The translations under genes were made by a program, and so were the position numbers. Below are positions 8,478 through 58,470 of a DNA stretch of 64,000 nt, piece after piece. The stretch is from Escherichia phage CL1: sequence record OK040806. One strand, given 5' to 3'. The notes under the pieces are model-generated. The model did not search any database. It had not been told where the DNA came from and was given only the letters and a program-made list of their open reading frames with translations. Within the stretch, counting starts at the first letter, position 1. Each line of letters starts with the position of its first letter.

Positions 8478-8845
8478 AGTGGCTAGAGGAAGCTTTTAAA
8501 AATAATATTGGTGCAATTGTAGTTGGTATTTTTAGTGTTATTGGTATGTATACCACCATGCAAGTCTCGGATGGTAAGCAAGAAGTATCTATCACAACAA
8601 AGTTACAGCAGCTAGATAATTATTCCAAAAGTAATTATTCAGCTATTCGTGATTTACAGTCTGATATGAGGCTGCTTCAGCTAGGGATGGAGAACCAGAA
8701 AGTCCAGTTAGAGAATGTTAAGGGAGAGAACGCAAAACTTACTAAGACTCTTGACAAATTCTCTGATAGTGTGAACAATCTGGCTCAATCAGTATCAGCC
8801 CTCCAAGCTATTACTGAAAAGAACACAAAGAATACTGAAAAGTAA
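8474..8845 (+). CDS. hypothetical membrane-anchored coiled-coil protein
   Basis: 123 aa; N-terminal hydrophobic helix (IGAIVVGIFSVIGMY) then heptad-like region; last gene before terminator. Confidence 0.35.
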   Translation: MKWLEEAFKNNIGAIVVGIFSVIGMYTTMQVSDGKQEVSITTKLQQLDNYSKSNYSAIRDLQSDMRLLQLGMENQKVQLENVKGENAKLTKTLDKFSDSVNNLAQSVSALQAITEKNTKNTEK

Positions 8846-8852
8846 AGTTTAA

Positions 8853-8879
8853 GGCTCCTTTTTACGGGAGCCTTTTTTT
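8853..8879 (+). terminator. intrinsic terminator ending the structural block
   Basis: GGCTCC-loop-GGAGCC stem followed by TTTTTTT, between convergent genes. Confidence 0.7.
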
Positions 8880-8882
8880 GTT

Positions 8883-9782
8883 TTATTTACCTACTGACAA
8901 AGGCGCTTCAATCTTTCCTGCATGTTGGTAGTTGTTAATACCACCGATAAAGTCACTTGCAGTGAGGTGTTTTAAGTCACTTAAAGTGTTAAGTGGTAGG
9001 CCAATCTCAAAAGTTGGTGCATGGAACTCTTCATTGTTCATCAGTTCATAAACCTGCTTCATATGGTTCTGATAAATCTGAGTATCTCCAAAGACACCTA
9101 TCAAGTACCGTGGAGTGTATCCGGTCATCTTGCAAAGAACTTCCAGAATAAAACCATAAGACGCAATATTAAACGGAAGTCCTAAGAAGGTGTCTACTGA
9201 ACGCTGATACCATTGTAAATCAACTTCACCCTCGTTAGTGATATAAATCTGAAACAGGACATGACAAGGTGCTAAAGCCATTGAGTTTGCTGCAATATCT
9301 GCTGCATTCCAAGCATTAACAAGCATGTAACGGTCTGTGATATCACCCTTCATCTTTGCTACTAAGGTCTCTAGTTGGTCTACAACGCAACCGTTATGAC
9401 CTTCGAAGTTTCTCCACTGAACCCCGTAGATTCTCCCACCTGCATCTTCTAACCAATCTTGTTCAGAAGAATAATTAGAGCTTAACCAACGTTTAAAATC
9501 ATCTGACCAGATAGTCCAACGTTCTCCGTCATTTTCACCCCAAGTACGGTAACGAAGTTCACCCAGCTTATTCTCACCATTCAGGAACCATAAAGCTTCC
9601 CCAATAACTTGCCGCGTAAACACCTGTTTAGAGGTTAAGAGTGGGAAACCAGTTCTCATATCAAAACGAAACTGTGGTGGAGCAAATGCAGAGATAACAT
9701 CTCCAGTTCGTGTAGTACGTAGTTCACCAACGGATAAAACATGGTTCAGGATATTTTTGTAACTCAAATCAGCTTGTGACAT
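8883..9782 (-). CDS. thyA: thymidylate synthase (ThyA family; pyrimidine hydroxymethylase homolog not excluded)
   Basis: 299 aa with RTGxxxxSxF, FPLLTSK, EALWFL, ALAPCH (catalytic Cys) and GLPFNIASY motifs; adjacent to DHFR as in T4 frd-td. Confidence 0.8.
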   Translation of the reverse strand: MSQADLSYKNILNHVLSVGELRTTRTGDVISAFAPPQFRFDMRTGFPLLTSKQVFTRQVIGEALWFLNGENKLGELRYRTWGENDGERWTIWSDDFKRWLSSNYSSEQDWLEDAGGRIYGVQWRNFEGHNGCVVDQLETLVAKMKGDITDRYMLVNAWNAADIAANSMALAPCHVLFQIYITNEGEVDLQWYQRSVDTFLGLPFNIASYGFILEVLCKMTGYTPRYLIGVFGDTQIYQNHMKQVYELMNNEEFHAPTFEIGLPLNTLSDLKHLTASDFIGGINNYQHAGKIEAPLSVGK

Positions 9783-9783
9783 A

Positions 9784-10329
9784 TCAAAATTGCCCTTTTA
9801 CTTGTGGAACATAAATTTCAAAAGTTGCTTTACCATCCTCTGATGGTTTTGACTGTACCTTTGTAAATACTCGGTTATCATACAACTTCTCAAAGAAGTT
9901 TTCAAAAGGTAAATGTACAGTGGCCTCTTCAGTAACTTTATGGAAAACTGTATGGAACACTACATCAGCATACGGTAAAGCATCGACAAGGACACCTGCA
10001 CCACCAATTACAAAGACATCTTCATCAATAGAACTATCAAGATACTTCAAAAATGCCCCAAAGGATTCTTTGCTGGCTTTAGCATACATTACCTCATCTT
10101 TGCCAAAGTCTATGCCTAAGTATGGTACAGAATTTGTTAAGATTAGGTTTGCACGTTCTGGTAAAGGTTTACTCCCCAGAGTCTTGAAAGTCTCGTTACC
10201 CATCACTACTAAGTTGTTTTTAGTGAGTCTCTTAAACTCTTGCATGTCCTGTTTATGTCGAGGCCACGGCATACCAGTTGGAGTACCAAACTCACCATTT
10301 TCACCACTTGCAAAGATTAATTTAATCAT
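9784..10329 (-). CDS. folA: dihydrofolate reductase
   Basis: 181 aa; N-terminal IFASGENGEFGTPTGMPW matches the DHFR G-x-x-G...LPW signature. Confidence 0.7.
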   Translation of the reverse strand: MIKLIFASGENGEFGTPTGMPWPRHKQDMQEFKRLTKNNLVVMGNETFKTLGSKPLPERANLILTNSVPYLGIDFGKDEVMYAKASKESFGAFLKYLDSSIDEDVFVIGGAGVLVDALPYADVVFHTVFHKVTEEATVHLPFENFFEKLYDNRVFTKVQSKPSEDGKATFEIYVPQVKGQF

Positions 10330-10586
10330 TTTGTAAATCCTTTCTTAATGAACCAGTTGATAACATTCTTCACAGCTTTATTGCTATGATAGATTAAGTG
10401 TGGTGTAGGTTGATATGAGCCATAGGCCCAGAAAGCAATGATTTCACTACACCCTGTACACCTTGTACTCTCTTCAGCAATATGACCGTTGACTATTTCA
10501 CTCACCTCACCCTGTAAGTCTGTACATCCACAATGTGGACAACGGATAGGTGTTCCATCAGACTCATAGCAGTGCTCAATTTTCAT
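10326..10586 (-). CDS. hypothetical Cys-rich (zinc-ribbon-like) protein
   Basis: 86 aa; CPHCGC ... CTGC pairs. Confidence 0.4.
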   Translation of the reverse strand: MKIEHCYESDGTPIRCPHCGCTDLQGEVSEIVNGHIAEESTRCTGCSEIIAFWAYGSYQPTPHLIYHSNKAVKNVINWFIKKGFTK

Positions 10587-11102
10587 TTATTTAACCTCAA
10601 AAACTGGTTCAAGAACCAATATAAAGTCTACACAGTCATCTTCTTCATCCAGAATACCATCAAAGTTCTTAGGAACGAAGTCGAAGAGGCTCATAACAAA
10701 GCAGTCAGAAGTAACCCTAATAGTGCCTCCCATATTCTCTACAGTTAGTACTGTACGACTCTCTTTTACCTCTCTCAGAAGATTACTCACAAAGTCATCT
10801 AAGAAGTACTTCATCAACGACTTAAAACCTTTAGGGTAATCTGTACCAGAGTATGTTTCAATCTGAGGTACAAGCTTAACATTTATACTAGTCTTTGTTA
10901 AGAACGTATTAGAGAACATACTATCAGGTAACTTACAAACAATCTTTCCAGTACCTTCATGCTCAATCTCAACAAAACCAGCTTCATCGCCACATGTGAC
11001 TATTTTAAAAGATGCTTCATTCTCACACTGTGAAGCCATAAACTTTTTAAACATCACTTTAAGGAAATCTGCATGAGCATCTTGTAAGAAGATATCAATC
11101 AT
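10587..11102 (-). CDS. hypothetical protein
   Basis: 171-aa ORF co-oriented in minus block. Confidence 0.4.
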   Translation of the reverse strand: MIDIFLQDAHADFLKVMFKKFMASQCENEASFKIVTCGDEAGFVEIEHEGTGKIVCKLPDSMFSNTFLTKTSINVKLVPQIETYSGTDYPKGFKSLMKYFLDDFVSNLLREVKESRTVLTVENMGGTIRVTSDCFVMSLFDFVPKNFDGILDEEDDCVDFILVLEPVFEVK

Positions 11103-11115
11103 AGTTAATCACCTA

Positions 11116-11475
11116 TTATGGGAACAGACACTTAATGTCGTCATTTTTGAAAACGAAACTTGTGTAGTTGTGACCGTCAACATCCAACCAAACAGCCTGA
11201 ATATCTACACCATCAAGATTGTGGTAAAGCTCTTTGATGAAGTGGTCTTTTACAATCTGACTGCTAGTGGTCTCCAGCTTAATGTTTGAGATTGCTGAAC
11301 CTACAGCCATATAGCCCATGACACGTTTTTTCTCAGTATGCTTAATCTTACCATCTTTGTAAGCCATAATGAGATTGGAAAGAATCTTTACACCATAATA
11401 CTTTTCAAGGTGAGTCGGTACACCATAAAAGCCTAATGCGAAGTTTTCAGAGTGGATAATGTTTTCACGTTTCAT
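11116..11475 (-). CDS. hypothetical protein
   Basis: 119-aa ORF. Confidence 0.4.
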   Translation of the reverse strand: MKRENIIHSENFALGFYGVPTHLEKYYGVKILSNLIMAYKDGKIKHTEKKRVMGYMAVGSAISNIKLETTSSQIVKDHFIKELYHNLDGVDIQAVWLDVDGHNYTSFVFKNDDIKCLFP

Positions 11476-11476
11476 A

Positions 11477-11776
11477 TTAATCTGCCAGCCTTAAATTAAA
11501 ATTAACACCAAATTTTTCGCATACTTCCAACATAAACTCAAGAGAGACATTACCAGTGAGATTGATTATGTTGGATACACGAGCCTGAGAGATACCACAA
11601 ATTTTAGCAACTTGCTCTTGAGAAAGACCTCTGGATTTAATCTCTCTCTTAAAACGATGTGCAACGAAATCTCTCATTTCGTCTACATCCATTGGACAAA
11701 TATAACTCTCCATTTCAGCTTCTCTGTCAGCCTCCCAATCATCTTGTGGAGCATAAGGGTCAAAAACCTCATTCAT
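11477..11776 (-). CDS. helix-turn-helix DNA-binding protein
   Basis: HTH-like segment LSQEQVAKICGISQARVSNI; start moved to internal ATG (MNEVF) giving 8-nt overlap with upstream gene. Confidence 0.4.
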   Translation of the reverse strand: MNEVFDPYAPQDDWEADREAEMESYICPMDVDEMRDFVAHRFKREIKSRGLSQEQVAKICGISQARVSNIINLTGNVSLEFMLEVCEKFGVNFNLRLAD

Positions 11777-11981
11777 CTTTCTTCTTCCGTTTTCGTGAAG
11801 TGTCAATCAATGAATCTATGTTTGTAGCCCTAACCTTTTCACGTTCATCGTTAAGATAATCGTCAAGAGCCTTTTCAATCTGTGAATCATCTTGACAGAT
11901 AACTGTAAAGACTGTAAAGCCATCTGTATCATCAATTATCTTACCATAACCGCTTCTGGGATGTAACTTTTTAAGAGCCAT
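11769..11981 (-). CDS. hypothetical protein
   Basis: 70-aa ORF. Confidence 0.35.
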   Translation of the reverse strand: MALKKLHPRSGYGKIIDDTDGFTVFTVICQDDSQIEKALDDYLNDEREKVRATNIDSLIDTSRKRKKKDE

Positions 11982-11982
11982 A

Positions 11983-12366
11983 TCAAATACCTGTGCAGCT
12001 TCTGTTTTCTAAGAAATACTCAACACCATACATAGCTTTTTGCATCAAATCTTCTTTAAACTGAATACGATGATTGAGCATAGCTTGTACGTCAATATCC
12101 TCATGGTGTTTCTCTTTAATGTTTGCAGATTGCAGGAAATACTCTGCAAGAACACGATACTGATAGTCAGTTACCTTATCAGTCATCTCTGTCAAAGACT
12201 CTTCAGAGATTGGTTTAAGTAGCTCGCCATTAGCCAGAGCAACACCTTTAACAATCTGGCAAGTGTCTTCTGGAACACCTGATAAGTCCACATTTGGGAG
12301 TTCTGTTGCATTGACTGGTAAATTCATTGCCATAACCATTGCAGCAGCTAAGAAAATCTTTTTCAT
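11983..12366 (-). CDS. secreted protein of unknown function
   Basis: 127 aa with N-terminal signal peptide MKKIFLAAAMVMAMNLPVNA; own promoter-like element upstream. Confidence 0.4.
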   Translation of the reverse strand: MKKIFLAAAMVMAMNLPVNATELPNVDLSGVPEDTCQIVKGVALANGELLKPISEESLTEMTDKVTDYQYRVLAEYFLQSANIKEKHHEDIDVQAMLNHRIQFKEDLMQKAMYGVEYFLENRSCTGI

Positions 12367-37728: not shown

Positions 37729-37999
37729 AACAGATTGGGAAGTAAAAGAACTTGTAAGTGATGCTGGAAATGGCTGTGAGATGTATATGATTCGTGGTCA
37801 TGTACCAGACCCATTAGCTATTGAGATGATTGACCATCACACAAGTGGATTCTACAAAGAACTCGGTGAACCAAGTATTGAAAGAACTTGGACAAAACCA
37901 GTTCCAGATAGCACAGGTAACTGCTCAGTAATCTATCACATTGTGAATCCACAAAAATGCAAAACAGCTATGGCTGTGACATTCGTAACTTTTGATTGA
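37721..37999 (+). CDS. hypothetical protein
   Basis: 92-aa ORF, ATGGCT overlap with HNH gene end. Confidence 0.3.
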   Translation: MARTDWEVKELVSDAGNGCEMYMIRGHVPDPLAIEMIDHHTSGFYKELGEPSIERTWTKPVPDSTGNCSVIYHIVNPQKCKTAMAVTFVTFD

Positions 38000-38010
38000 G
38001 AGGGAAAACT

Positions 38011-38892
38011 ATGAAAACATCTATCCGTGTTACAGTTCATTCACCAACTAAAGGTACTCATGAAGAAGAGTTTAACATCATCCAATTTCCTTCTGGTGAG
38101 ATTGGTGGACACTTTTCACAAGAGCTTGTTGATTTCACTGCTTATGCAGCATCATCCATCAACAATGTGATTATGATTGTAAAAGGTTATGATAAAGACA
38201 CATTGTTTGCTGTGGCACTTGCTAAAGAAGCAATTGATGATTTAGTCCCTCATGATTATGCTTTAAAGACTGTCATCTTTTACTACTTACCAAATGCACG
38301 ATACGACCGTCACATGTTTAAAGGTGATGCAGCAGCTTTAAAGGTTTTTGCTAAGCAGGTCAATGCAATGGGGTTTGGCGCAGTCTGTGCAGTTGACCCT
38401 CACAGTTATGTACCAGATAACCTGTTTAACTGCTTCCAGAGTATTCCTCAAAAGGAAATTGCAGTCCACTATGCAAATGACCCACTGGTTGATTACTTAG
38501 TAGCCCCAGATGCAGGTGCTTCTAAGAAGATTGCAGAGACTGCTAAAGAGGTGGATAAACCATATGTCACAATGTCTAAAGTACGTAACCTTAAGACTGG
38601 TGAAATTACTGGTATGCGAATCCTTGATGATGTTGATTTGACAGATAAAACCGTCATGATTCTGGATGATATTTGCGATGGTGGTCGAACCTTCATAGAG
38701 GCAGCTAAACATCTTCGTGAAGCAGGTGCAAGACGTGTGGAACTCTATGTAACTCATGGCATTTTCTCTAAAGGTGTTGAAAACTTGCTTGACAACGGCA
38801 TTGACCACATCTACACTACAAACTCTTTAGGGGAAGCTAAAGACCGTGGCTTAACACATTATGGTCAAGTTACTGTAGCAAACCTTGATTAA
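38011..38892 (+). CDS. prs: ribose-phosphate pyrophosphokinase (Prs) family protein; possible ADP-ribose pyrophosphokinase
   Basis: Prs-like blocks: YYLPNARYDR, AVDPHSY, LVAPDAGASKKIA, PRPP-binding loop VMILDDICDGGRTF...ARRVELYVTHGIFSKG; start at ATG with GAGGGA SD. Confidence 0.7.
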   Translation: MKTSIRVTVHSPTKGTHEEEFNIIQFPSGEIGGHFSQELVDFTAYAASSINNVIMIVKGYDKDTLFAVALAKEAIDDLVPHDYALKTVIFYYLPNARYDRHMFKGDAAALKVFAKQVNAMGFGAVCAVDPHSYVPDNLFNCFQSIPQKEIAVHYANDPLVDYLVAPDAGASKKIAETAKEVDKPYVTMSKVRNLKTGEITGMRILDDVDLTDKTVMILDDICDGGRTFIEAAKHLREAGARRVELYVTHGIFSKGVENLLDNGIDHIYTTNSLGEAKDRGLTHYGQVTVANLD

Positions 38893-38937: not shown

Positions 38938-40719
38938 ATGACTAACTCACTTTATGCAGTACCAGCAGGTTTAAACGCAGATGCTTACAAATCTGGCCAT
39001 ATTTATCAGTATCCTAGTGTAACAGAGCATCTAATGTTCAACCTGACACCACGTAGTGATAAATGGTTTAACAGCCCTTTAGCAATTGATGGTGTAGTAG
39101 CTTTTGGTATTCAACGTTTTGTTAAAGATTACTTGATAGACCACTGGAATGCCACCTTCTTTGAACGTGACAAAAAAGAAGCAATTGACGAAATCTTGGA
39201 AGTCATGAACGGTGTTCTGGGTAAAGATGCTATTGGTCGAGAACATTGGGAAGCACTTCACGACTTAGGTTATCTACCAGTTGAAGTATACGCTGTAGAA
39301 GAAGGTACAGTTGTCCCTATGCGTGTTCCAATGATTGTATTCCAGAACACTGTTTCAGGTTTCCATTGGGTAGCAGGGTATCTAGAAGATGCTTTCTCTG
39401 CTGAGATTTGGAAGGCTTGTACCATTGCAACTATTGCATTGCACTACAAACGTATCTGTAAGAAGTGGTCTGACCTTACTTGTGACAATGACTTACATTT
39501 ACCTTATCAGTGCCATGATTTTGCTATGCGTGGTATGTCCGGCTTTACTGATGACGCATTTAACGCTGTAGGTCACTTGACTAGCTTTAAAGGAACTGAT
39601 AGCTTCCCTGCTGTGTATACAGCTAAACGCACCTATGGACAGTCCTACCCAATCTCTGATATCGGTGGTTCTGTACCAGCCACTGAGCATTCTGTAATGT
39701 GTGCAAACATTGCTTGGGAAGGTGGTAATGAGTTGATTGAAGAAGAAAGACGCTTTAAAGGTGAGTTACAAACCTTTCGTCGTTTCTTAACAGAAACTTA
39801 CCCAACTGGTATTGCAAGTGTTGTTTCAGATACTTATAACTTCTGGAGAACTGTGTCAGAAATCTTACCAGCACTTCGCAAAGAGATTATGGAACGTGAT
39901 GGTAAACTGGTGATTCGTCCTGACTCTGGAGACCCTGTACATATTGTCACAGGATATAAAGCAATCCACTTAGAGTGTGCTAAAAAGGCTTATTATGAAC
40001 ACCTAAGCAAGCTGGAAGCCAGTGACACAATGCTGAATGCTGTTCTGAACATGAAGCTTGAGAACATCAACTATGGTATTGCTGGGTGGCTACTGTCAGA
40101 AGGCTACGAAATGGTTGTTGACAGAGAAGACTTTGAAGTTGCCGATACAGTAATGTTGAAAAATGCTTATATGGTTGGTTCTGCAAACGTTGTAACGCGT
40201 CCTGTAGCGGAGATTGATGGAGCTATCAAGACACTGTATAACATCTTTGGAGGAACTATCAACTCTAAAGGTTTTAAAGTACTGGATGAGCACATCGGGC
40301 TTATTTATGGCGACTCTATCACGTTGGAACGTGCAAACGAAATACTGAAGCGTTTGTATGAAATGGGTTTTGCAAGCTCTAACGTAGTGTTTGGTGTAGG
40401 TTCTTACACTTACCAGTACATGACTCGTGACACCTTTGCATTTGCTGTCAAAGCAACTCTTGCAAGCATTGGTGGTAAAGAGATTATGCTTGCAAAAGAC
40501 CCTAAAACAGATAGTGGTGTTAAGAAGTCTGCTTTTGGTGGAGTAGCACCTATGTGGGATGGTGAAAATCTGAAAGCTGTAGATGGCTATGGGTTCCAGA
40601 GCTTTGCAGATGCACTTGAACACCCAGCTTGTGCTTTACGTTTAGTCTTTAGCGACTCTGAGCAGTTCGGCTACACGACTCTTGGTGATATTCGAAATAA
40701 TATTGACAAGCAGCTTTAA
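38938..40719 (+). CDS. nadV: nicotinamide phosphoribosyltransferase (NadV/NAMPT) family protein; possible nicotinamide ADP-ribose transferase
   Basis: 593-aa NAPRTase-family-like sequence immediately downstream of the Prs-like gene; longer than typical bacterial NadV. Confidence 0.7.
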   Translation: MTNSLYAVPAGLNADAYKSGHIYQYPSVTEHLMFNLTPRSDKWFNSPLAIDGVVAFGIQRFVKDYLIDHWNATFFERDKKEAIDEILEVMNGVLGKDAIGREHWEALHDLGYLPVEVYAVEEGTVVPMRVPMIVFQNTVSGFHWVAGYLEDAFSAEIWKACTIATIALHYKRICKKWSDLTCDNDLHLPYQCHDFAMRGMSGFTDDAFNAVGHLTSFKGTDSFPAVYTAKRTYGQSYPISDIGGSVPATEHSVMCANIAWEGGNELIEEERRFKGELQTFRRFLTETYPTGIASVVSDTYNFWRTVSEILPALRKEIMERDGKLVIRPDSGDPVHIVTGYKAIHLECAKKAYYEHLSKLEASDTMLNAVLNMKLENINYGIAGWLLSEGYEMVVDREDFEVADTVMLKNAYMVGSANVVTRPVAEIDGAIKTLYNIFGGTINSKGFKVLDEHIGLIYGDSITLERANEILKRLYEMGFASSNVVFGVGSYTYQYMTRDTFAFAVKATLASIGGKEIMLAKDPKTDSGVKKSAFGGVAPMWDGENLKAVDGYGFQSFADALEHPACALRLVFSDSEQFGYTTLGDIRNNIDKQL

Positions 40720-49263: not shown

Positions 49264-50049
49264 ATGGGTATTGTGAAAATCATCAATGGTGATATCTTTG
49301 CAGCATTTGATAAAGGTAAGTTTGATGTCATCGGTCACGGTTGCAACTGTATGAACTTAATGGGTGCAGGTATCGCTGACAAGATTTCTAAACTTTACCC
49401 AAAAGCATATGAGACTGATACAGAAGTTTATCTGTATGCAGGTGGCATAGGCCACAAGCCCTGTGAGAATTTACTAGGCAATTTCTCTGTAGCACGTTTA
49501 AAACAAGGTCGTATAGCTAACCTTTACACTCAGCTTAAGACTGGTAAAGATGCCCGATACAGTGCTTTAGAGTCATCTTTGAAACAACTTAACAGATACT
49601 GTGAAGTAAATCAGTTGAAGAAAGTTGGCTTGCCTATGATTGGTGCAGGTATCGGTGGGCTAGACCCTCAAGCCGTCACAGTTATCATTAATCAGGTGAT
49701 GAAGAGTGTAGATGTGTATCTGTATGTCTACGAGACAAAGATGTACAACGAGTTACACTCAGGTTGGAAGAACTACTGCGAACCAGAATACTTTGCAGGT
49801 GTAGTAACGTTCACAGACAATACAGTTACCCTCTTCAGACGAAGAAAAGGTAAGATACATCAAAGTAACCCTCCGGTTGAGAAGATGTCTCTAAGTAACG
49901 CTCTAGTTACCCACCTGTCGAAGAGCAATCACAGGATAGCTGTAACATTTGGTAGTGATGCAGATACATATATCTATGCAAGAACTGATGAGGATATCGA
50001 GACGGTCTTCTCTTCACCAGAAGTTACCTTTTTAGGCGCAAAGAACTAA
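49264..50049 (+). CDS. macro-domain-like protein (ADP-ribose binding/processing fold) with C-terminal extension
   Basis: N-terminal INGDIF...DVIGHGCNCMNLMGAGIA and later GLPMIGAGIGGLDP resemble the two Gly-rich macro-domain motifs; ~100-aa unknown extension. Confidence 0.45.
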   Translation: MGIVKIINGDIFAAFDKGKFDVIGHGCNCMNLMGAGIADKISKLYPKAYETDTEVYLYAGGIGHKPCENLLGNFSVARLKQGRIANLYTQLKTGKDARYSALESSLKQLNRYCEVNQLKKVGLPMIGAGIGGLDPQAVTVIINQVMKSVDVYLYVYETKMYNELHSGWKNYCEPEYFAGVVTFTDNTVTLFRRRKGKIHQSNPPVEKMSLSNALVTHLSKSNHRIAVTFGSDADTYIYARTDEDIETVFSSPEVTFLGAKN

Positions 50050-50080: not shown

Positions 50081-50126
50081 GCCTTTCTTATCTGGTAAAT
50101 TTTTTCAGGTAAGGAGGGCTTTTTTT
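50081..50126 (+). terminator. long-stem intrinsic terminator after macro-domain gene
   Basis: GCCTTTCTTATCTG / CAGGTAAGGAGGGC 14-bp stem (three G-U) followed by TTTTTTT. Confidence 0.55.
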
Positions 50127-50320
50127 ATTTCAAGATTGTGCAGGTAGAGTTCTGTAGAGAAATCTGTAGAGAGAATTTTGAACTCCAAAGAGAAAATTCA
50201 TTTTCAAACTGTGCAGGTAATCTCCAAAGAGCTTTTTCATTTTCAAAACGTGCAGACCCCGCTCAGGTCGGGCAAGAAAAATCATTTTAGAATTGTGCAG
50301 GTAGGTGGGTGCAGGTGGGA
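50127..50320. repeat. four direct repeats of ~20 bp (consensus ATTTTCAAANTGTGCAGGTA), two inside tandem 40-bp units
   Basis: copies near 50127, 50199, 50238, 50283 plus GTGGGTGCAGGTGGG; tandem 40-bp units 50181-50220 and 50221-50260. Confidence 0.6.
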
Positions 50321-51580: not shown

Positions 51581-51640
51581 TAAAGTACTTTACAAGGGGC
51601 TTATAGTTCGATAAAGTAAGCCCCAGATAAAGAGCTTTAC
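51581..51640 (+). promoter_or_regulatory. cassette A copy 3 (identical core to copy 2)
   Basis: palindrome 51581-51592, TTTACA 51589-51594, TAAAGT 51612-51617, IR 51596-51624. Confidence 0.5.
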
Positions 51641-51669
51641 TAACTAAATCCTAAACTGGAGATTCTAAA

Positions 51670-52182
51670 ATGAAAACTGTAGACGCTACCTTTGAAGTTG
51701 TAAAAGAAAAATTCACCATTATTTATGAAGCTGTCAATTGCTTTGAAGCAAGCCATAATCTTGATAATTGGAAGTTTACAGATGACCATCAAGGCGGCGT
51801 GACGATTAAAAATCCTAACTGTCAGAGTAATGAATTTAAATATGCAATCCCTTTGCATTACAGCCTTAAGCAGCTTTCAAGTGACTATGCAAAACAAGGC
51901 CGTGAGAATCCATCGAAAGAGGCTTACACGAGCTTACAGAAAGAACTAGAAAGGGATTTAGAGGCTTCAGAGTATAACATTGCCGCGAAAGTTGTAGATG
52001 CAAACGGTAGCACGGTTTTAGAGAGTTTTTATATTGGTTATGCTTTCGATTGGTGCTACAGTGACGGCGATGATTTAGATGACAGACTAAAAGAGGAAGT
52101 GAACAACGCAGACGCAGAATCTGAAGTATTAGAACGCTTGGAAGCATTAAAAGATTCAGTGATGAATATCTTTAAGAACTAA
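51670..52182 (+). CDS. hypothetical acidic protein (array gene 4)
   Basis: 170 aa; cassette A upstream. Confidence 0.45.
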   Translation: MKTVDATFEVVKEKFTIIYEAVNCFEASHNLDNWKFTDDHQGGVTIKNPNCQSNEFKYAIPLHYSLKQLSSDYAKQGRENPSKEAYTSLQKELERDLEASEYNIAAKVVDANGSTVLESFYIGYAFDWCYSDGDDLDDRLKEEVNNADAESEVLERLEALKDSVMNIFKN

Positions 52183-52184
52183 AT

Positions 52185-52242
52185 AGATTTCTTTACACGG
52201 GGCTAACAAGCGGATATGATAGCCCCAGATAAAGAGCTTTAC
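52185..52242 (+). promoter_or_regulatory. cassette A copy 4 (variant IR GGGGCTA-N14-TAGCCCC; -10 TATGAT)
   Basis: TTTACA 52192-52197, TATGAT 52215-52220, IR 52199-52226 with compensatory stem change. Confidence 0.5.
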
Positions 52243-52270
52243 TACTAAATCCTAAACTGGAGACTCTAAA

Positions 52271-52567
52271 ATGAAATTATCGAATAAAGTTCGTGAAAAC
52301 CTTAGTAAATTACTCAACAAAATTGATTTTATCGAGACATCAAGAAATAATCATGATGTTATGGAATGGTTGCACGGCAAAATAAAAGGCCGTCGCGTAG
52401 TGATTTGCTTATGGAATAGTTGCAGGGAGTATAAAAAGCCTGTATTGCAAATTAATGTTTATGATGATACTTTTAAAAGTCCTGTAAAGTCTAAAAGCGA
52501 TTTATTAGAATCCTATGAGATAACTGTAAATGGCAAAGTATCACGTAAAGAGGAAACACCATGTTAA
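52271..52567 (+). CDS. hypothetical protein (array gene 5)
   Basis: 98 aa; cassette A variant upstream. Confidence 0.45.
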   Translation: MKLSNKVRENLSKLLNKIDFIETSRNNHDVMEWLHGKIKGRRVVICLWNSCREYKKPVLQINVYDDTFKSPVKSKSDLLESYEITVNGKVSRKEETPC

Positions 52568-52893
52568 TGACTGGTATCACTGCAATCATTGCCATTTTCG
52601 CGCTATATAAGGCATATAAAGCCTATAATCTAGCAAATAAGGCAATCACACAGCAAGTTAGTAATAACCTTGTAGAGAGCTTTCTAGGGCGTTTAAGTGA
52701 TGAGCAAATAAAGCGGCTAGAGATGAGCTTCAGATATAAAGCGAAAACCTATCAGATAAGTGACATCTTCAAAGAGGATTTTCAGCTTGTCGATGATTAT
52801 AACTCACTGATAAATGCTTTAAATATCAGTGACTTAAAAGATTATTACGCTGTAATTGTCCAAGAACTGAACAAACGAAAACAAAACTGTTGA
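52561..52893 (+). CDS. hypothetical membrane-anchored protein (array gene 6)
   Basis: 110 aa; N-terminal TM helix (MLMTGITAIIAIFALY); overlaps previous gene (ATGTTAATG); no cassette of its own. Confidence 0.4.
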   Translation: MLMTGITAIIAIFALYKAYKAYNLANKAITQQVSNNLVESFLGRLSDEQIKRLEMSFRYKAKTYQISDIFKEDFQLVDDYNSLINALNISDLKDYYAVIVQELNKRKQNC

Positions 52894-52945
52894 CACTGAT
52901 TTTTAGATAACCTAAATTACTAATCAACGGGAGGGATGACCTCCC
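52890..52945 (+). promoter_or_regulatory. cassette B copy 1: promoter TTGACA-17-TAAATT plus 5' leader stem-loop GGGAGG-GATGA-CCTCCC
   Basis: TTGACA 52890-52895 (overlaps upstream stop), TAAATT 52913-52918, hairpin 52929-52945, conserved leader to ATG 52980. Confidence 0.55.
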
Positions 52946-52979
52946 ACTAAACAAAGTCCTTAAACTAGGAGATTCAAAA

Positions 52980-53252
52980 ATGTATACTACTAATAACGGT
53001 CGTACTCTAAATGTAACTTTGCGCCACTATGTTAACGGCGTGATGCACTTTGAAGATTTACAAGCTGAACAACATATCTTAGATTGGCAACTTGCAGGAC
53101 TACAAAAAACTGCTACAGGATACGGGAAAAAGATTCCAACTAGTTGGAAAGTATACTATGAAGGGCGTTTGCGCAGAATTTATCAAGATGTATACAGCAA
53201 TAGCGCAACAAGTTACATCATGGTAAAAGGTAAAAAATTACACTTAGTATAA
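52980..53252 (+). CDS. hypothetical protein (array gene 7)
   Basis: 90 aa; cassette B upstream. Confidence 0.45.
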   Translation: MYTTNNGRTLNVTLRHYVNGVMHFEDLQAEQHILDWQLAGLQKTATGYGKKIPTSWKVYYEGRLRRIYQDVYSNSATSYIMVKGKKLHLV

Positions 53253-53309
53253 AGTACTTTACAAGGGGCTTATAGTTCGATAGAGTAAGCCCCAGATAAA
53301 GAGCTTTAC
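53250..53309 (+). promoter_or_regulatory. cassette A copy 5 (-10 TAGAGT)
   Basis: palindrome 53250-53261, TTTACA 53258-53263, TAGAGT 53281-53286, IR 53265-53293. Confidence 0.5.
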
Positions 53310-53338
53310 TACTCAATCCTAAATTGGAGAACTTAAAA

Positions 53339-53743
53339 ATGGCTATTAATAACCGTGAGTTATCAATCTTAAAAGCACGTTTGACCGTTAACCGGATTAA
53401 TGTTATTACGTCATCAGCACCGGACGAAACATTACACAACATTATTGGGAAGATTCAAAGTGTTATCTTAGACGTTGAAAGCGTAAAAAACTCATTGGCT
53501 GACGTTGCAGCAGGTATCACGCTAGACGGTGCACAATATGAAATGGCTGACATGTTAGGCAAATCAAAGGTAATGAATAAAGAGCTTGATTTAAAAATGT
53601 TCCGTTTTGCCGTGAAAGTGTGGCTATCTGTCGAGTATGACGCAAATTTTGCAATCGCTGACTTTTTCGCAACATGGTTGCAACGTAATTTAACAAATTA
53701 TGATTTTCGTGATATCTGTGACGCAATTTACGCAGAACTCTAA
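53339..53743 (+). CDS. hypothetical protein (array gene 8)
   Basis: track start is TTG; ATG at 53339 sits at the conserved distance from the cassette A SD. Confidence 0.45.
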   Translation: MAINNRELSILKARLTVNRINVITSSAPDETLHNIIGKIQSVILDVESVKNSLADVAAGITLDGAQYEMADMLGKSKVMNKELDLKMFRFAVKVWLSVEYDANFAIADFFATWLQRNLTNYDFRDICDAIYAEL

Positions 53744-53752
53744 AAAATTTTA

Positions 53753-53808
53753 TTGACACTGATTTTTAAAACAAGTAAATTACTAATCAACGGGAGGGAT
53801 GACCTCCC
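53753..53808 (+). promoter_or_regulatory. cassette B copy 2
   Basis: TTGACA 53753-53758, TAAATT 53776-53781, hairpin GGGAGG/CCTCCC 53792-53808. Confidence 0.55.
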
Positions 53809-53842
53809 CACTAAGTAAAGTCCTTAAACTAGGAGATTCAAA

Positions 53843-54043
53843 ATGGCTATTATCAACGGTTTAAACATTGAAACTACTCATATCAAAGATATCAAAGTTG
53901 GCGATGTAGTCCTTTCCCACGGCGTAGAAAAAACTGTCACTGCAAAGGATATTAAAGAGGATTCTTTCATGGGTAGGACTCTCTTCGGTGATTCTTATTG
54001 CTTAGGTTATCTTGCAGTTTTAAAAGTTGTCAAAAATAACTGA
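53843..54043 (+). CDS. hypothetical protein (array gene 9)
   Basis: 66 aa; cassette B upstream. Confidence 0.4.
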   Translation: MAIINGLNIETTHIKDIKVGDVVLSHGVEKTVTAKDIKEDSFMGRTLFGDSYCLGYLAVLKVVKNN

Positions 54044-54103
54044 TAAAGTACTTTACAAGGGGCTTATAGTTCGATAAAGTAAGCCCCAGATAAAGAGCTT
54101 TAC
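54044..54103 (+). promoter_or_regulatory. cassette A copy 6 (-10 TAAAGT)
   Basis: palindrome 54044-54055, TTTACA 54052-54057, TAAAGT 54075-54080, IR 54059-54087. Confidence 0.5.
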
Positions 54104-54138
54104 CACTAAATCAAGTCCTTAAACTAGGAGATTCAAAA

Positions 54139-54702
54139 ATGAAATGCTATCACGGAACTACACTCAAAAACTTTGTAAACCTGCTGAATGGTGGCGATAA
54201 GCCTGAAGGTATCTGGAACTGTTCCTACATGGACGATTGTTTCTATGTTTACCCAATGAATAAGGTTATCAAAATGGGATGTCTGGAAGATGAAGAAGAT
54301 TCTTACATCCGTGAACGCTGCATTCAAAGTGCCTTAGAGTCGGGGCTTATTACGGCTGCTTTCCAAATGGAAACGCAGGACGTGATTGTTATTGAAATGG
54401 ATATCCCAGAGGAAGAACTAGAGGACGATTATTCTTGTGACAACATGAGCGAAATTGCCAGCTTTACCGGATACTTTGATAAAAATTGGATTGTTAGCAT
54501 CCACTCAACGAAATTTAGTGCGATGTATGCACCTTTCTTTGTACCTGATACGAAAAACCGCAACTTGGGATATGTTGACGATGATTTGTTGAGTATTGCA
54601 AAAATTGTACAGAATAGCGGTGATAGTTCCGTGTTTTGTGACCTACTGGATAAAATCACGGAAAACCTCACAGAACGCAATTTAAAGGACTTTTTAGGAT
54701 AA
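54139..54702 (+). CDS. hypothetical protein with ADP-ribosyltransferase-like N-terminal motif (array gene 10)
   Basis: 187 aa; N-terminus MKCYHGTTLKNFVNLLNGG resembles the [FY]HGT NAD-binding strand of H-Y-E-class ARTs, Tyr cluster SYMDDCFYVY follows; motif-level only. Confidence 0.35.
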   Translation: MKCYHGTTLKNFVNLLNGGDKPEGIWNCSYMDDCFYVYPMNKVIKMGCLEDEEDSYIRERCIQSALESGLITAAFQMETQDVIVIEMDIPEEELEDDYSCDNMSEIASFTGYFDKNWIVSIHSTKFSAMYAPFFVPDTKNRNLGYVDDDLLSIAKIVQNSGDSSVFCDLLDKITENLTERNLKDFLG

Positions 54703-54765
54703 GCAGTACAAAGACACCAACTTTTAACTTAAGGCCCACACAGGGCCATTTAGAGGGCTTCAAAC

Positions 54766-54999
54766 ATGCTTACAACCGTTTATCTTATCCTTTCTATTTG
54801 TAATGGTCATTCATGTGATTTTAAAGGGCTTGAGGAGTTTACAGGAAGTAAAGAAAATGCCGTTCAGGTCTGTCAGATAGCAAGACAAGACTACCCCGCC
54901 AGTGATGATATACAATGTTACTTTAAGACAGAAGATGAAGAGGGTATCTATTTCGATAGTGTAGACGGGCAATATGAAATTATCATTGAAAAAGACTAG
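54766..54999 (+). CDS. hypothetical protein (array gene 11)
   Basis: 77 aa; hydrophobic N-terminus; no cassette, short hairpin upstream. Confidence 0.35.
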   Translation: MLTTVYLILSICNGHSCDFKGLEEFTGSKENAVQVCQIARQDYPASDDIQCYFKTEDEEGIYFDSVDGQYEIIIEKD

Positions 55000-55053
55000 A
55001 CAAGCCTGATAAAAGTCTGTAAATTGTCAATCAACGGGAGGCGATAACCTCCC
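54997..55053 (+). promoter_or_regulatory. cassette B copy 3 (-35 TAGACA; loop CGATAA)
   Basis: TAGACA 54997-55002, TAAATT 55020-55025, hairpin 55036-55053. Confidence 0.5.
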
Positions 55054-55088
55054 AACTAAACAAAGTCCTTAAACTAGGAGATTCAAAA

Positions 55089-55430
55089 ATGGCTTATGTA
55101 ACCGTAATTACCAATAAAGAAGATTCATCTTGGTCAACTCAAGTAAGCGATAAGATGTCACCTATGCAGTGCCTAAAATACTTTGAGCAATGGAACAAAG
55201 GCGAGGATACCAGCCCCTTTCAAGTGATGCAGATTATCCATACAGATAACGAAGGGAATAAAACTGTTTTGAATAGTGAGTACTATGCAACCAGATTCGA
55301 AACGAGAAGTAAAGCAATGAAGCTCTTACGTGAATCCGGTTATTCTCATATTGCCGCGCTAATCTGGGATGACCTGCTAAAAAATCAGCGTATCAGCTAC
55401 GTAAAACCTGAAAAAATATTCATCAGTTAA
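55089..55430 (+). CDS. hypothetical protein (array gene 12)
   Basis: 113 aa; cassette B upstream. Confidence 0.45.
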   Translation: MAYVTVITNKEDSSWSTQVSDKMSPMQCLKYFEQWNKGEDTSPFQVMQIIHTDNEGNKTVLNSEYYATRFETRSKAMKLLRESGYSHIAALIWDDLLKNQRISYVKPEKIFIS

Positions 55431-55559
55431 TCAATAACTTACAAAAAACTTTTAAAAAAGTGTTGACAATACCCCTTGACATTGGTAACTTTGTTCGAGG
55501 GGGTTTATCTAAAAGGGATTAACTTAAAAGATTCTTTATAGATAAACTTAAAAAATTGC

Positions 55560-55621
55560 TTGCAATCAGATATCAAAACAAGTAAATTACTAATCAACGG
55601 TGAGGGAATGAACTTCCTCAC
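55560..55621 (+). promoter_or_regulatory. cassette B copy 4 (-35 TTGCAA; compensatory stem GTGAGGGA/TTCCTCAC)
   Basis: TTGCAA 55560-55565, TAAATT 55583-55588, hairpin 55600-55621; extra TTGACA boxes at 55463 and 55476. Confidence 0.5.
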
Positions 55622-55653
55622 TAAATAAAGTCCTTAAACTAGGAGATTCAAAA

Positions 55654-56184
55654 ATGAACAAATTTCAAGCTATCAACTACATTCGCTCAAATGCTGTAAT
55701 GTCTAAGCCTGTTAAAGATACCTATGAATTTCGCTGCAATGGGGTACACTTTGCAACCATTACCAAATCAGAAAACGGGGTTTATTACATTCATCGCCGT
55801 AATGTTTATACTGTTGTAGTCTCTCACTTTATGAAAGCTGTAGCGGAATTATTACCGTTATTCTTAGAGATTTACTTGGATGAGTGTAAAAACGTTCATA
55901 GCCACGTTAAAAACCTTTTAAATAGCTATAAAATGGCTTATGAACGTTCAATCAAGTCCTTAAACAAGTTCTATAAAGCCCCTGTAAATACTGTTTCAAT
56001 GGCCTACGCTGCAAATGGTGAAAGAGTAAGACTATCCGATGTGGAAGATATCGAGCTTTACGACCATCGCCCTAACGGTTACTCTCAGACCCTCGGTGAA
56101 GGTTTAACGTTCAATATCAAGAACTTAGAAAAAACTTTAAAAGATATTGAAAAAGATATTGACGAGACAATCAAAAATCTGTAA
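55654..56184 (+). CDS. hypothetical protein (array gene 13)
   Basis: 176 aa; cassette B upstream after a 223-bp spacer. Confidence 0.45.
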   Translation: MNKFQAINYIRSNAVMSKPVKDTYEFRCNGVHFATITKSENGVYYIHRRNVYTVVVSHFMKAVAELLPLFLEIYLDECKNVHSHVKNLLNSYKMAYERSIKSLNKFYKAPVNTVSMAYAANGERVRLSDVEDIELYDHRPNGYSQTLGEGLTFNIKNLEKTLKDIEKDIDETIKNL

Positions 56185-56214
56185 ATTATCAATCAACGGG
56201 AGGGATAACCTCCC
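56159..56214 (+). promoter_or_regulatory. cassette B copy 5 (-35 TTGACG, inside 3' end of upstream gene)
   Basis: TTGACG 56159-56164, TAAATT 56182-56187, hairpin GGGAGG-GATAA-CCTCCC 56198-56214. Confidence 0.5.
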
Positions 56215-56249
56215 TACTAAGCAAAGTCCTTAAACTAGGAGTTATCAAG

Positions 56250-56888: not shown

Positions 56889-58470
56889 ACGTCTTATTAA
56901 ATCCTTTCCCTTTCCTTTCCAGAATCTTACTAGACCTTAAAAGCAATAACTCTATAGTCTACTCTATAGCCTTTTATCAAATCAACTTAAATATAAGCCC
57001 ATAACCCGAAAGGGAAGGGCAACCATTTAAACGCTCTATAAAGCCCTATAACAGCCTTATCAACCTAACTTAAGGGATTGCATTACTCCACGCTTAAAAG
57101 CTCTTTATAAAGCTTCTCAGAGCCTTAAAAGAATCTTATAAGGGTGTAAGCTTTATCATCTCGTTAGTATCTTGTGAATAACTAAAAAGGGCTTGTTAGT
57201 GTCTTAAAAGTATGTTATAGGGGCTATAAAGTTGCTTAAAAGTTGCTATAAAGTTACGTAAATGCTAGCCCCCTTAACATTTTCTTAACAAATTTTTAAC
57301 AATCCCTACATAGTTATGCTTTTAAGGCACTTGTTAACAACTTGTTAGCCCCTTGTTAAATCTCTGTTAAGACCACGTAAAAGCCTTGTAAGAGTCTTTG
57401 ACATAGCCTTAAAAGCTCCTGTAAAGCCCTATAAAGAGCTTTCTATATAGTTGGGGTGCAATTACTAGGGAGAGGCTTAAAAGAGCTTACAAAGAGCTAT
57501 AGAGAGCTTTTAAGAGGGCTATTTAAAGGGTCACTAAGAGGGAAAGGGAACTATAGACCAAGAGATAGTGACCATGTTAATAGCTTGTTAAAAAGATTAA
57601 ACACTTGTTAGGAACTTGTTAATTATCTTAACAAAATAACTCTTAAAAATTAACTTGTTAGCTCTTGTTAGTCATCTGTTAAGACTCTGTAAAGCCTACG
57701 TATCAACTGTTAAAAAACTGTTAAGCTCTTGTTAGTTCTGTTAAGAATCTGTTAAGACCTCTGAAGAGATGTTAAGAAGATGTAGCAACTGTTAAGAGAT
57801 TGTTAATGATATTTTAAAATTTTGCAAAGGGGATGTTACAGGGATGTTAAGGGCTACCAAGCAGATATATATCTTCTACAGATATTTTTGAGTTCCTTCA
57901 AAGACCCTAAAAAATGACTTGATAGCTCTATTTTATAAAAATTTTAAAATTCTGAATAATTACCTAGACAGTCTTTTAAAAATACAGGTAGAAACAGGCT
58001 TATAAGATACCTTGTTAGTACCGTGTTAGACCTTGTGAGATAAGGTCTGTAAAGATATTCCTGTTAAGTTTGCTAAAACAGTCTATATAGAGGCTTAGTA
58101 TTTCCTAGTGAACACCTATAGAGAGTGTCATAGCTGACATAGAGATTAAGAGGTGTATAGGAGCTTCTAAGAGGGTATAGAGGGATGGTTAAGGTGATTG
58201 TATAGGTTGTTAAGAAGGCTTGTTAGAAGAGTGTTTAAAGGGCTTGTTAGAGGGTTATTTAGAAGGCTTATACAGAGGGGCTATTAAGACCACTAGATAG
58301 TGACTAAGATACTATATAGTACTATATAACTATATAGAGAGTAAGATTAAGAAGGTTGTTAAGAAGGGTAGATATTTTATTCACATATGATGGTGACCCA
58401 GAGGTTGGGACAACCGATGAAATTTTATAAAAATTAAAAAGCCCCCAATTAAGGAGGCTCTTAAGATATT
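56889..58470. repeat. 1.6-kb ORF-free region dense in short degenerate repeats
   Basis: no ORF of 60 aa or more on either strand; >30 copies of YTGTTAR often phased ~11 bp (57330-57830); CTTAAAAG/CTATAAAG family (56930-57300); ACTATATA x3 (58308-58340); lies between convergent blocks. Confidence 0.7.

Follow-up and report, generated by a model that had tools for sequence, protein, structure and literature searches.

A candidate ADP-ribosyltransferase encoded in the early gene array of Escherichia phage CL1

Alt, ModA and ModB, the ADP-ribosyltransferases (ARTs) of phage T4, are of the R-S-E type, with an arginine on strand 1, Ser-x-Ser on strand 2 and Glu-x-Glu before strand 5. Alt has been reported to aid in evading the type I Mokosh defence system. 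The catalytic motif of the rifampin ART Arr is H-Y-D, including Tyr49, which is equated with the tyrosine found in H-Y-E ARTs; its loop Val32-His46 is the equivalent of the D-loop, and rifamycins are the only known small-molecule substrates of ARTs (10.1101/2025.02.20.639278). Here, we describe an open reading frame (ORF) in a stretch of 64,000 nucleotides from Escherichia phage CL1 (sequence record OK040806; the whole stretch is referred to below as the window). The window is that of a Felixounavirus, and Escherichia phage C600M2 has a 'hypothetical protein' with 100% identity to the ORF product. From sequence comparison and a predicted structure, we consider it moderately likely that the ORF product is an active ART that depends on nicotinamide adenine dinucleotide (NAD+) and acts early in infection on a host protein or small molecule.

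Predicted fold and active site

The AlphaFold2 model of the ORF product, calculated from a 29-sequence alignment, has a predicted local distance difference test score (pLDDT) of 83 and a predicted template-modelling score of 0.82, and the split β-sheet core of an ART is present in this predicted structure. Residues 1 to ~127 would form the core and be followed by a helical C-terminal part specific to the family. When the predicted structure was compared with the Protein Data Bank (PDB) using Foldseek the best matches were ARTs, none of which reached E<=0.001. A preliminary description of this DNA had pointed to an ART-like motif at the N-terminus and had named structure prediction and fold comparison as the way to check it; the outcome of these favours an ART fold.

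Remote sequence links were sought with the family to which the ORF belongs. All 150 members among the matches listed are single-domain, stand-alone proteins of 126-242 residues, the typical length being ~180. Sub-threshold matches to the Pfam PARP family (PF00644) were obtained for 22 of these 150 members (best E 6e-4; best score 19.8 bits, where the cutoff is 26.7), always at profile positions 49-72, which cover HG[ST] and the next helix; the match of one member extends to the Tyr strand. The NCBIfam RNA 2'-phosphotransferase model NF002013 is matched by 17 of the 150 (best E 4.4e-4) and PF01885 by one (E 0.0054), while the ORF product itself matches neither. Searches of PDB sequences with the family profiles gave nothing significant, the top matches being the HGT motif of Tpt1 and a Nob1-type PIN domain; the single best match was to the HGT segment of Runella Tpt1, and no Arr chains were matched at E<=10. 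No Pfam family for Arr is among the 25 matched most often, out of 44 Pfam families with reported matches to the 150 members.

Family-against-family comparisons were carried out using hhalign with an alignment of the KptA/Tpt1 NAD+ lobe and an alignment of 56 Arr sequences from bacterial genomes. The Tpt1 NAD+ lobe gave a score of 25.2 (E 7e-4, 54 columns), compared with 9.5 +/- 1.5 (maximum 14.4) for column-shuffled controls, and Arr gave a score of 22.4 (E 0.0057, 116 columns), compared with 11.3 +/- 1.7 (maximum 15.7). Against one KptA sequence the HGT segment alone was aligned. In our view, these scores indicate that the relationships of the family to Tpt1 and to Arr are both weak but real at the sequence level. 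We also considered a Y-x-[SC]-x-N motif in common with strand 4 of Tpt1, but this was dropped as the Asn is variable among Tpt1 structures.

Residue conservation was counted in an alignment of 205 family sequences, mostly 25-40% identical to the ORF product. The conserved positions are H5 (200 of 205), G6 (194), T7 (178), W26 (204), S29 (198), Y36 (203), D97 (202), S99 (201), C100 (191), N102 (184) and M103 (192). K21, K42, P132 and N140 are likewise mostly conserved. The N-terminus of the protein reads MKCYHGTTLKNFVNLLNGG, and the preliminary description had likened it to the [FY]HGT strand that contacts NAD+ in the H-Y-E ARTs (diphtheria toxin, exotoxin A and PARP). The tetrapeptide is no evidence when taken alone, because about one occurrence is expected by chance in the window (one was found in the six-frame translation against 0.77 expected). 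It rises above chance because it is conserved in diverged relatives and stands in register with the HG[ST] and helix of the PARP and Tpt1 profiles: H5-G6-T7 is aligned to the HGT of Runella Tpt1, KptA and Arr and to Pfam PARP profile positions 49-72. The Tyr-rich segment noted earlier, SYMDDCFYVY, is present at residues 29-38, as are the acidic runs that follow the N-terminus (EDEED and PEEELEDD). Within this segment hhalign places Y36 on Tyr52 of Arr-2, which is equivalent to Tyr49 of the Arr protein MsArr. Residue by residue, H5 is aligned to the β1 histidine of PARP, Tpt1 and Arr, and Y36 to Arr Tyr49.

Assignment to the H-Y-E class itself did not hold. In the 205-sequence alignment, acidic residues are not conserved in the predicted strand 118-126 or just ahead of it, the place expected for the glutamate (position 116 is Glu in 42 of 205 and D114 is found in 81 of 205). 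The conserved acid is instead D97. The alignment with Arr is collinear over the ART core, pairing H5 with His19, Y36 with Tyr49 and D97 with Asp84 of MsArr; PEEELEDD of the ORF product lines up with PEGAIEDD of MsArr, which places D97 on Asp84, and an aligned Asn then follows. The best reading of the sequence data is a triad of H-Y-D together with a family-specific S99-C100-x-N102-M103 element, in which the role of D97 is an inferred one. The preliminary interpretation is therefore supported at the level of the predicted fold, with H-Y-E refined to an Arr-like H-Y-D. The loop at residues 21-32 would correspond to the D-loop, since it is placed between β1 with its helix and the Tyr strand, as is Arr loop 32-46.

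On this basis, a reaction scheme can be proposed. NAD+ would lie in the cleft with its ribose and nicotinamide amide held by H5-G6-T7 and its nicotinamide stacked on Y36, and the loop at residues 21-32, with W26 and S29, would close over it. D97 would act as does Asp84 of the rifampin ART, positioning or activating the acceptor that attacks C1'' as nicotinamide leaves.

Several observations weigh against this assignment. The equivalence of D97 and Asp84 comes from one weak alignment, and hhalign assigns low probabilities, 26% to Tpt1 and 6% to Arr. Curated thresholds of Pfam or NCBIfam are reached by none of the family members. The loop at residues 21-31, the only low-confidence part of the model, has pLDDT <50; the fold and the roles of the residues are both based on predicted structures.

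Gene family, early array and accessory module

The ORF is a real gene. Table 1 lists its predicted functional residues, its expression signals and the neighbouring features that are discussed below. The label 'array ORF' given to it in the preliminary description was borne out, as it stands behind one of six 92-nt promoter cassettes and a repeated Shine-Dalgarno leader. This leader, CCTTAAACTAGGAGATTCAAAAATG (repeat families D2/D3), is present in 7-9 copies in the 49-58 kb region, with an ATG start codon at the end of each copy. Repeats of identical type have been described in the Felix O1 genome paper, in which ORFs 13, 16, 20, 21 and 22 of the corresponding array showed a peak in reverse-transcription PCR (RT-PCR) 5 min after infection (PMC3185647). 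Felix O1 ORFs 20, 21 and 22 flank the insertion point of the module that contains the ORF. The repeated promoter, leader and Shine-Dalgarno sequences and the timing of the Felix O1 array indicate that the ORF is a true member of the early array, with a promoter of its own. Early transcription by the host RNA polymerase from its own σ70-type cassette would be expected from the sequence and from the time at which the flanking Felix O1 genes peaked in RT-PCR.

Table 1. Coordinates in the window of the ORF, its predicted functional residues and associated features
Feature	Position	Strand	Comment
ORF under study (CDS)	54139..54702	+	ATG start, TAA stop, 187 aa; predicted stand-alone ART-fold protein; PHROG 3303; isoelectric point (pI) 4.2
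H5-G6-T7 codons	54151..54159	+	Predicted NAD+-contacting end of strand β1
K21-D32 codons	54199..54234	+	Conserved loop (W26, S29); predicted counterpart of the ART D-loop over NAD+ and acceptor
Y36 codon	54244..54246	+	Strand 2 (CFYVY); predicted nicotinamide-stacking Tyr
D96-D97-Y-S99-C100-D-N102-M103 codons	54424..54447	+	Signature of the family, following strand 3; D97 predicted as catalytic acid
Shine-Dalgarno AGGAG	54126..54130	+	8 nt before the ATG of the ORF; belongs to the repeated leader
σ70-like promoter TTTACA-17-TAAAGT	54052..54080	+	From promoter scan
Hairpin GGGGCTTA/TAAGCCCC	54059-54087		Overlaps the promoter of the ORF
92-nt repeat cassette (family D1, six copies)	54021-54112		Encloses the promoter and hairpin of the ORF
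Three-ORF module, 1.18 kb	53849..55029	+	Missing from Felix O1; blastn collinearity
66-aa ORF of module	53843..54043		
77-aa ORF of module	54766..54999		
Repeat copies bounding module (family D4)	53766-53847, 55011-55092		
Macro-domain ORF	49264..50049		Pfam E 1e-7
NadV/NAMPT-like ORF	38938..40719		
PRPP-synthetase-like ORF	37996..38892		

The protein matches PHROG 3303 ('unknown function') over its full length (E 2.4e-85; its residues 1-186 are aligned to positions 1-185 of the 186 in the profile). A Pfam search of the ORF gave no family match, and Fungal_KA1, at E 0.03, was rejected as a chance match; searches of NCBIfam and PADLOC with the ORF gave no matches. Homologs are found in 375 phage records, and an exhaustive profile search at E<=1e-3 gave at least 495 family clusters at 50% identity. 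Homologs of 29-40% identity occur in Erwinia Kolesnikvirus, Pectobacterium Ounavirinae, Vibrio myoviruses of 133-140 kb and Pseudomonas Pakpunavirus (PaP1 gp143). We found no paper linking ARTs with Felixounavirus, and the Pakpunavirus paper applies the term ADP-ribosyltransferase to the NARP1 enzyme only. The main text of a survey of viral NAD+ and ADP-ribose systems (Iyer et al. 2022, PMC9503650) names none of these phages, though its supplement may list the family, of which PaP1 gp143 (YP_007236554.1) and phiEa104 gp025 (YP_004327000.1) are members; apart from that supplement, no paper describing the family was found, and it is annotated as hypothetical in the records examined.

Comparison with Felix O1 (86,155 bp) using blastn places window positions 51582-53848 on Felix O1 8630-10900 and window positions 55030-56241 on Felix O1 10833-12048. 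No homolog of the ORF was found in Felix O1 by tblastn at E<=1 or with the family hidden Markov model (HMM). The break points of the module fall at repeat copies, which suggests that recombination between intergenic repeats leads to the gain and loss of early-gene modules. Counts of records, which were grouped by the first word of the organism name and not matched record by record, are 119 records with the DNA polymerase and 116 with the ORF gene for Escherichia, 23 and 22 for Shigella, 11 and 11 for Citrobacter, 29 and 28 for Erwinia, and 81 and 63 for Salmonella. These data suggest that the gene is accessory, being nearly universal in the Ounavirinae of E. coli, Shigella and Erwinia and missing from Felix O1.

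In the Felixounaviruses two allele classes are apparent, with 90-100% and ~52-57% identity to the ORF, and only five records lie between 60% and 90%. The pattern resembles the replacement of one allele by another more than a gradual divergence. In wV8, which carries the second allele class, the gene is located at ~10.9 kb, where Felix O1 has a gap. Together with the distribution of the gene, the two classes are what would be expected of a gene for conflict or host adaptation and not of a core replication or structural gene. The product of this accessory gene might serve in host takeover or neutralize a host defence. The absence of the gene from Felix O1 and its presence in close relatives provide a natural comparison for a phenotype.

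Phages of the Felixounavirus and Pakpunavirus groups have been isolated widely and are studied as candidates for use in phage therapy and biocontrol; for most of their early genes no function has been assigned. The family described here is among the few early proteins common to Ounavirinae, Pakpunavirus and large Vibrio myoviruses, and it can be given a concrete and testable proposed assignment as an NAD+-dependent ART with H5, Y36 and D97 as its predicted catalytic residues.

Two other features of the region were noted. The gene-free stretch of ~1.6 kb at window 57000-58340, between the convergent early array and minus-strand genes, contains dense short repeats with a period of 10-11 nt (of the TGTTAAG and CTTAAAAG types) as well as 62-nt and 24-nt repeats; this helical-turn spacing suggests a protein-binding array, for example a replication origin or regulatory region. 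Window 50124-50303, immediately 3' of the Macro gene, lacks a convincing ORF and holds overlapping 23-nt and 34-nt direct repeats (families D16 and D18; example TTCATTTTCAAACTGTGCAGGTA), with three copies of each. An Rfam scan of the 49-59 kb region gave nothing credible, its one match being a chance match to a miRNA.

Acceptor, NAD+ context and alternative readings

The family is strongly acidic, with a median pI of 4.2, a median net charge of -21 and a pI <5 in 97% of members; the net charge of the ORF product is ~-20. This acidity counts against a nucleic acid substrate of the kind used by DarT or Tpt1; as acceptor, a small molecule or a basic protein of the host would be more probable than DNA or RNA. 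No partner gene common to the Ounavirinae, Vibrio and Pseudomonas loci was found within +/-3 kb. As no neighbour is conserved across the enterobacterial, Vibrio and Pseudomonas loci, the ORF product therefore appears to act alone, without a cognate antitoxin or immunity gene.

The same acidity is relevant to the possibility that the protein binds without transferring, as an ART-fold inhibitor, decoy or sponge for NAD+, for immune signals derived from ADP-ribose or for a host protein, with an acidic surface that might mimic nucleic acid. Its pI and charge are like those of many phage DNA-mimic and inhibitor proteins, many phage anti-defence proteins are binders, and the canonical strand-5 glutamate is not conserved. 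Set against this, the histidine, glycine, tyrosine and D97 are near-invariant in ~200 sequences at 25% identity, as is typical of a catalytic site, and Arr is likewise acidic (pI 5.2) and yet is an active enzyme with Asp in place of Glu. We regard a pure binder as unlikely.

The preliminary description had also drawn on the presence of a Macro-domain protein and NAD+ supply enzymes in this phage. These genes are indeed present in the window, but they are not specific partners of the ORF. There are 2857 phage records with Macro homologs, and Felix O1, which carries both Macro and NadV, is missing the ORF gene; the Macro domain was rejected as a specific partner on these grounds. The Macro-domain protein has 261 residues, of which residues 25-141 match Macro and the C-terminal ~110 residues match nothing assigned; T4-like phages match just the Macro half. 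Pakpunaviruses carry Macro and NAD+ reconstitution genes, and in PaP1 and its relatives the ART-like protein is accompanied by NAD+ reconstitution pathway 1 and by a Macro domain that is Poa1p-like. NAD+ is among the most decreased metabolites in PaP1 infection despite these phage genes, and the authors of that work gave no phage-side explanation for the drop. It fits a phage NAD+ consumer but is circumstantial and proves nothing.

The decrease in PaP1 infection can also be read as the work of an enzyme that consumes NAD+ with no macromolecular target, either a glycohydrolase or one with Tpt1- or RES-like phosphate-acceptor chemistry, whose soluble ADP-ribose product would be processed by a phage Macro phosphatase and NAD+ salvage. 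The Macro ORF of the array has homologs annotated as phosphatase or Poa1p-like, and NadV and PRPP-synthetase-like ORFs are located in the window. However, a plain NADase would be of little use to a phage that invests in NAD+ salvage, the gene content of Felix O1 indicates that there is no obligate three-part pathway, and the catalytic Arg residues of Tpt1 and RES are not conserved in the family. This reading also appears unlikely to us. Were the protein to prove an active ART, it would itself help to account for the phage NAD+ salvage genes and for the PaP1 observation.

A more specific form of the ART assignment would make the family a widespread clade of Arr-like H-Y-D phage ARTs with a small-molecule acceptor, such as a second messenger of host immunity or a metabolite that is toxic, that is inactivated early in infection. 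We consider this quite improbable; if true, it would provide a second small-molecule substrate class for ARTs and a new anti-defence chemistry.

The matches of family members to the RNA 2'-phosphotransferase HMM raise the question of a Tpt1/KptA-like enzyme acting on RNA ends, by 2'-phosphate removal or 5'-phosphate ADP-ribosylation, in tRNA repair together with a phage polynucleotide kinase, ligase and Macro protein; these phages do have numerous tRNAs, as well as a polynucleotide kinase and a DNA ligase. The ORF product lacks the N-terminal RNA lobe with its Arg-His-Arg-Arg tetrad, its pI of 4.2, compared with 9.4 for KptA, counts against RNA binding, and the similarity to Tpt1 ends after strand 3. 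Such a role is very improbable.

A PIN-like nuclease, suggested by the resemblance of DDYSCxNM to DDYxxQN, the acidic motif of PIN domains of the Nob1 type, by matches of the family profile to 2lcq (PIN and zinc ribbon; E 0.28-0.9, residues 54-112) and by matches of nine of the 150 members to NCBIfam PRK12496 (best E 0.0014), is scarcely credible, as the E-values are all non-significant, the strand-1 residue is His and not the PIN Asp, and the predicted strand 4-5 hairpin without an intervening helix is unlike the PIN α/β/α sandwich; we rejected it on the grounds of the predicted ART fold. The weak PIN matches of DDYSCxNM (window 54404-54474, residues ~90-112) recur family-wide and are read as convergence or chance.

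Comparison with described ADP-ribosyltransferases

The closest functional analogy to an ART at this locus is provided by Alt, ModA and ModB of T4, which are phage ARTs that act on host proteins early in infection. The family differs from these R-S-E enzymes in having His for Arg, FYVY for STS and no ExE, and no T4 ART was found among its fold or sequence matches. T4 Alt is packaged in the virion, whereas the ORF gene is part of a promoter-driven early array. AcrIF11, an anti-CRISPR protein that is an ART, shows very weak structural similarity and no sequence similarity to the ORF product, for which an anti-defence role is hypothetical. The ORF product shows neither a match to DarT models nor a basic DNA-binding surface.

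Among the H-Y-E ARTs, the segment HG[ST]-x3-NF-x2-[IL]L-x2-G of the family is in register with the Pfam PARP positions given above. Compared with those enzymes, the family has no conserved strand-5 Glu and no regulatory or translocation domains. The closest structural neighbour of the ORF product is the NAD+ lobe of Tpt1/KptA, for which the best profile score was obtained, spanning the HGT motif, the helix, strand 2 and strand 3. The protein begins at strand 1 of this lobe, with the alignment starting at KptA residue 101, and the second His of Tpt1 is a Tyr in the family.

Comparison with Arr (MsArr, 2HW2/9IAF; Arr-2, 9IBA) indicates that both it and the ORF product are small, stand-alone, acidic, minimal ARTs, the latter as predicted, with Asp rather than Glu as the third residue of the Arr triad and of the one proposed here. 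The family differs from Arr in a helical insertion of 25 residues that follows the Tyr strand and in a ~60-residue helical tail, and the DD-x-SC-x-NM signature with its invariant Ser and Cys is a feature of the family. The settings also differ, being bacterial antibiotic resistance for Arr and the early genes of a lytic phage for the ORF. Phage ARTs are already an established kind of protein, as illustrated by Alt, ModA and ModB of T4 and by AcrIF11, and the family is not a new type of system; if active, it would be an addition from outside T4 to the small set of phage ARTs.
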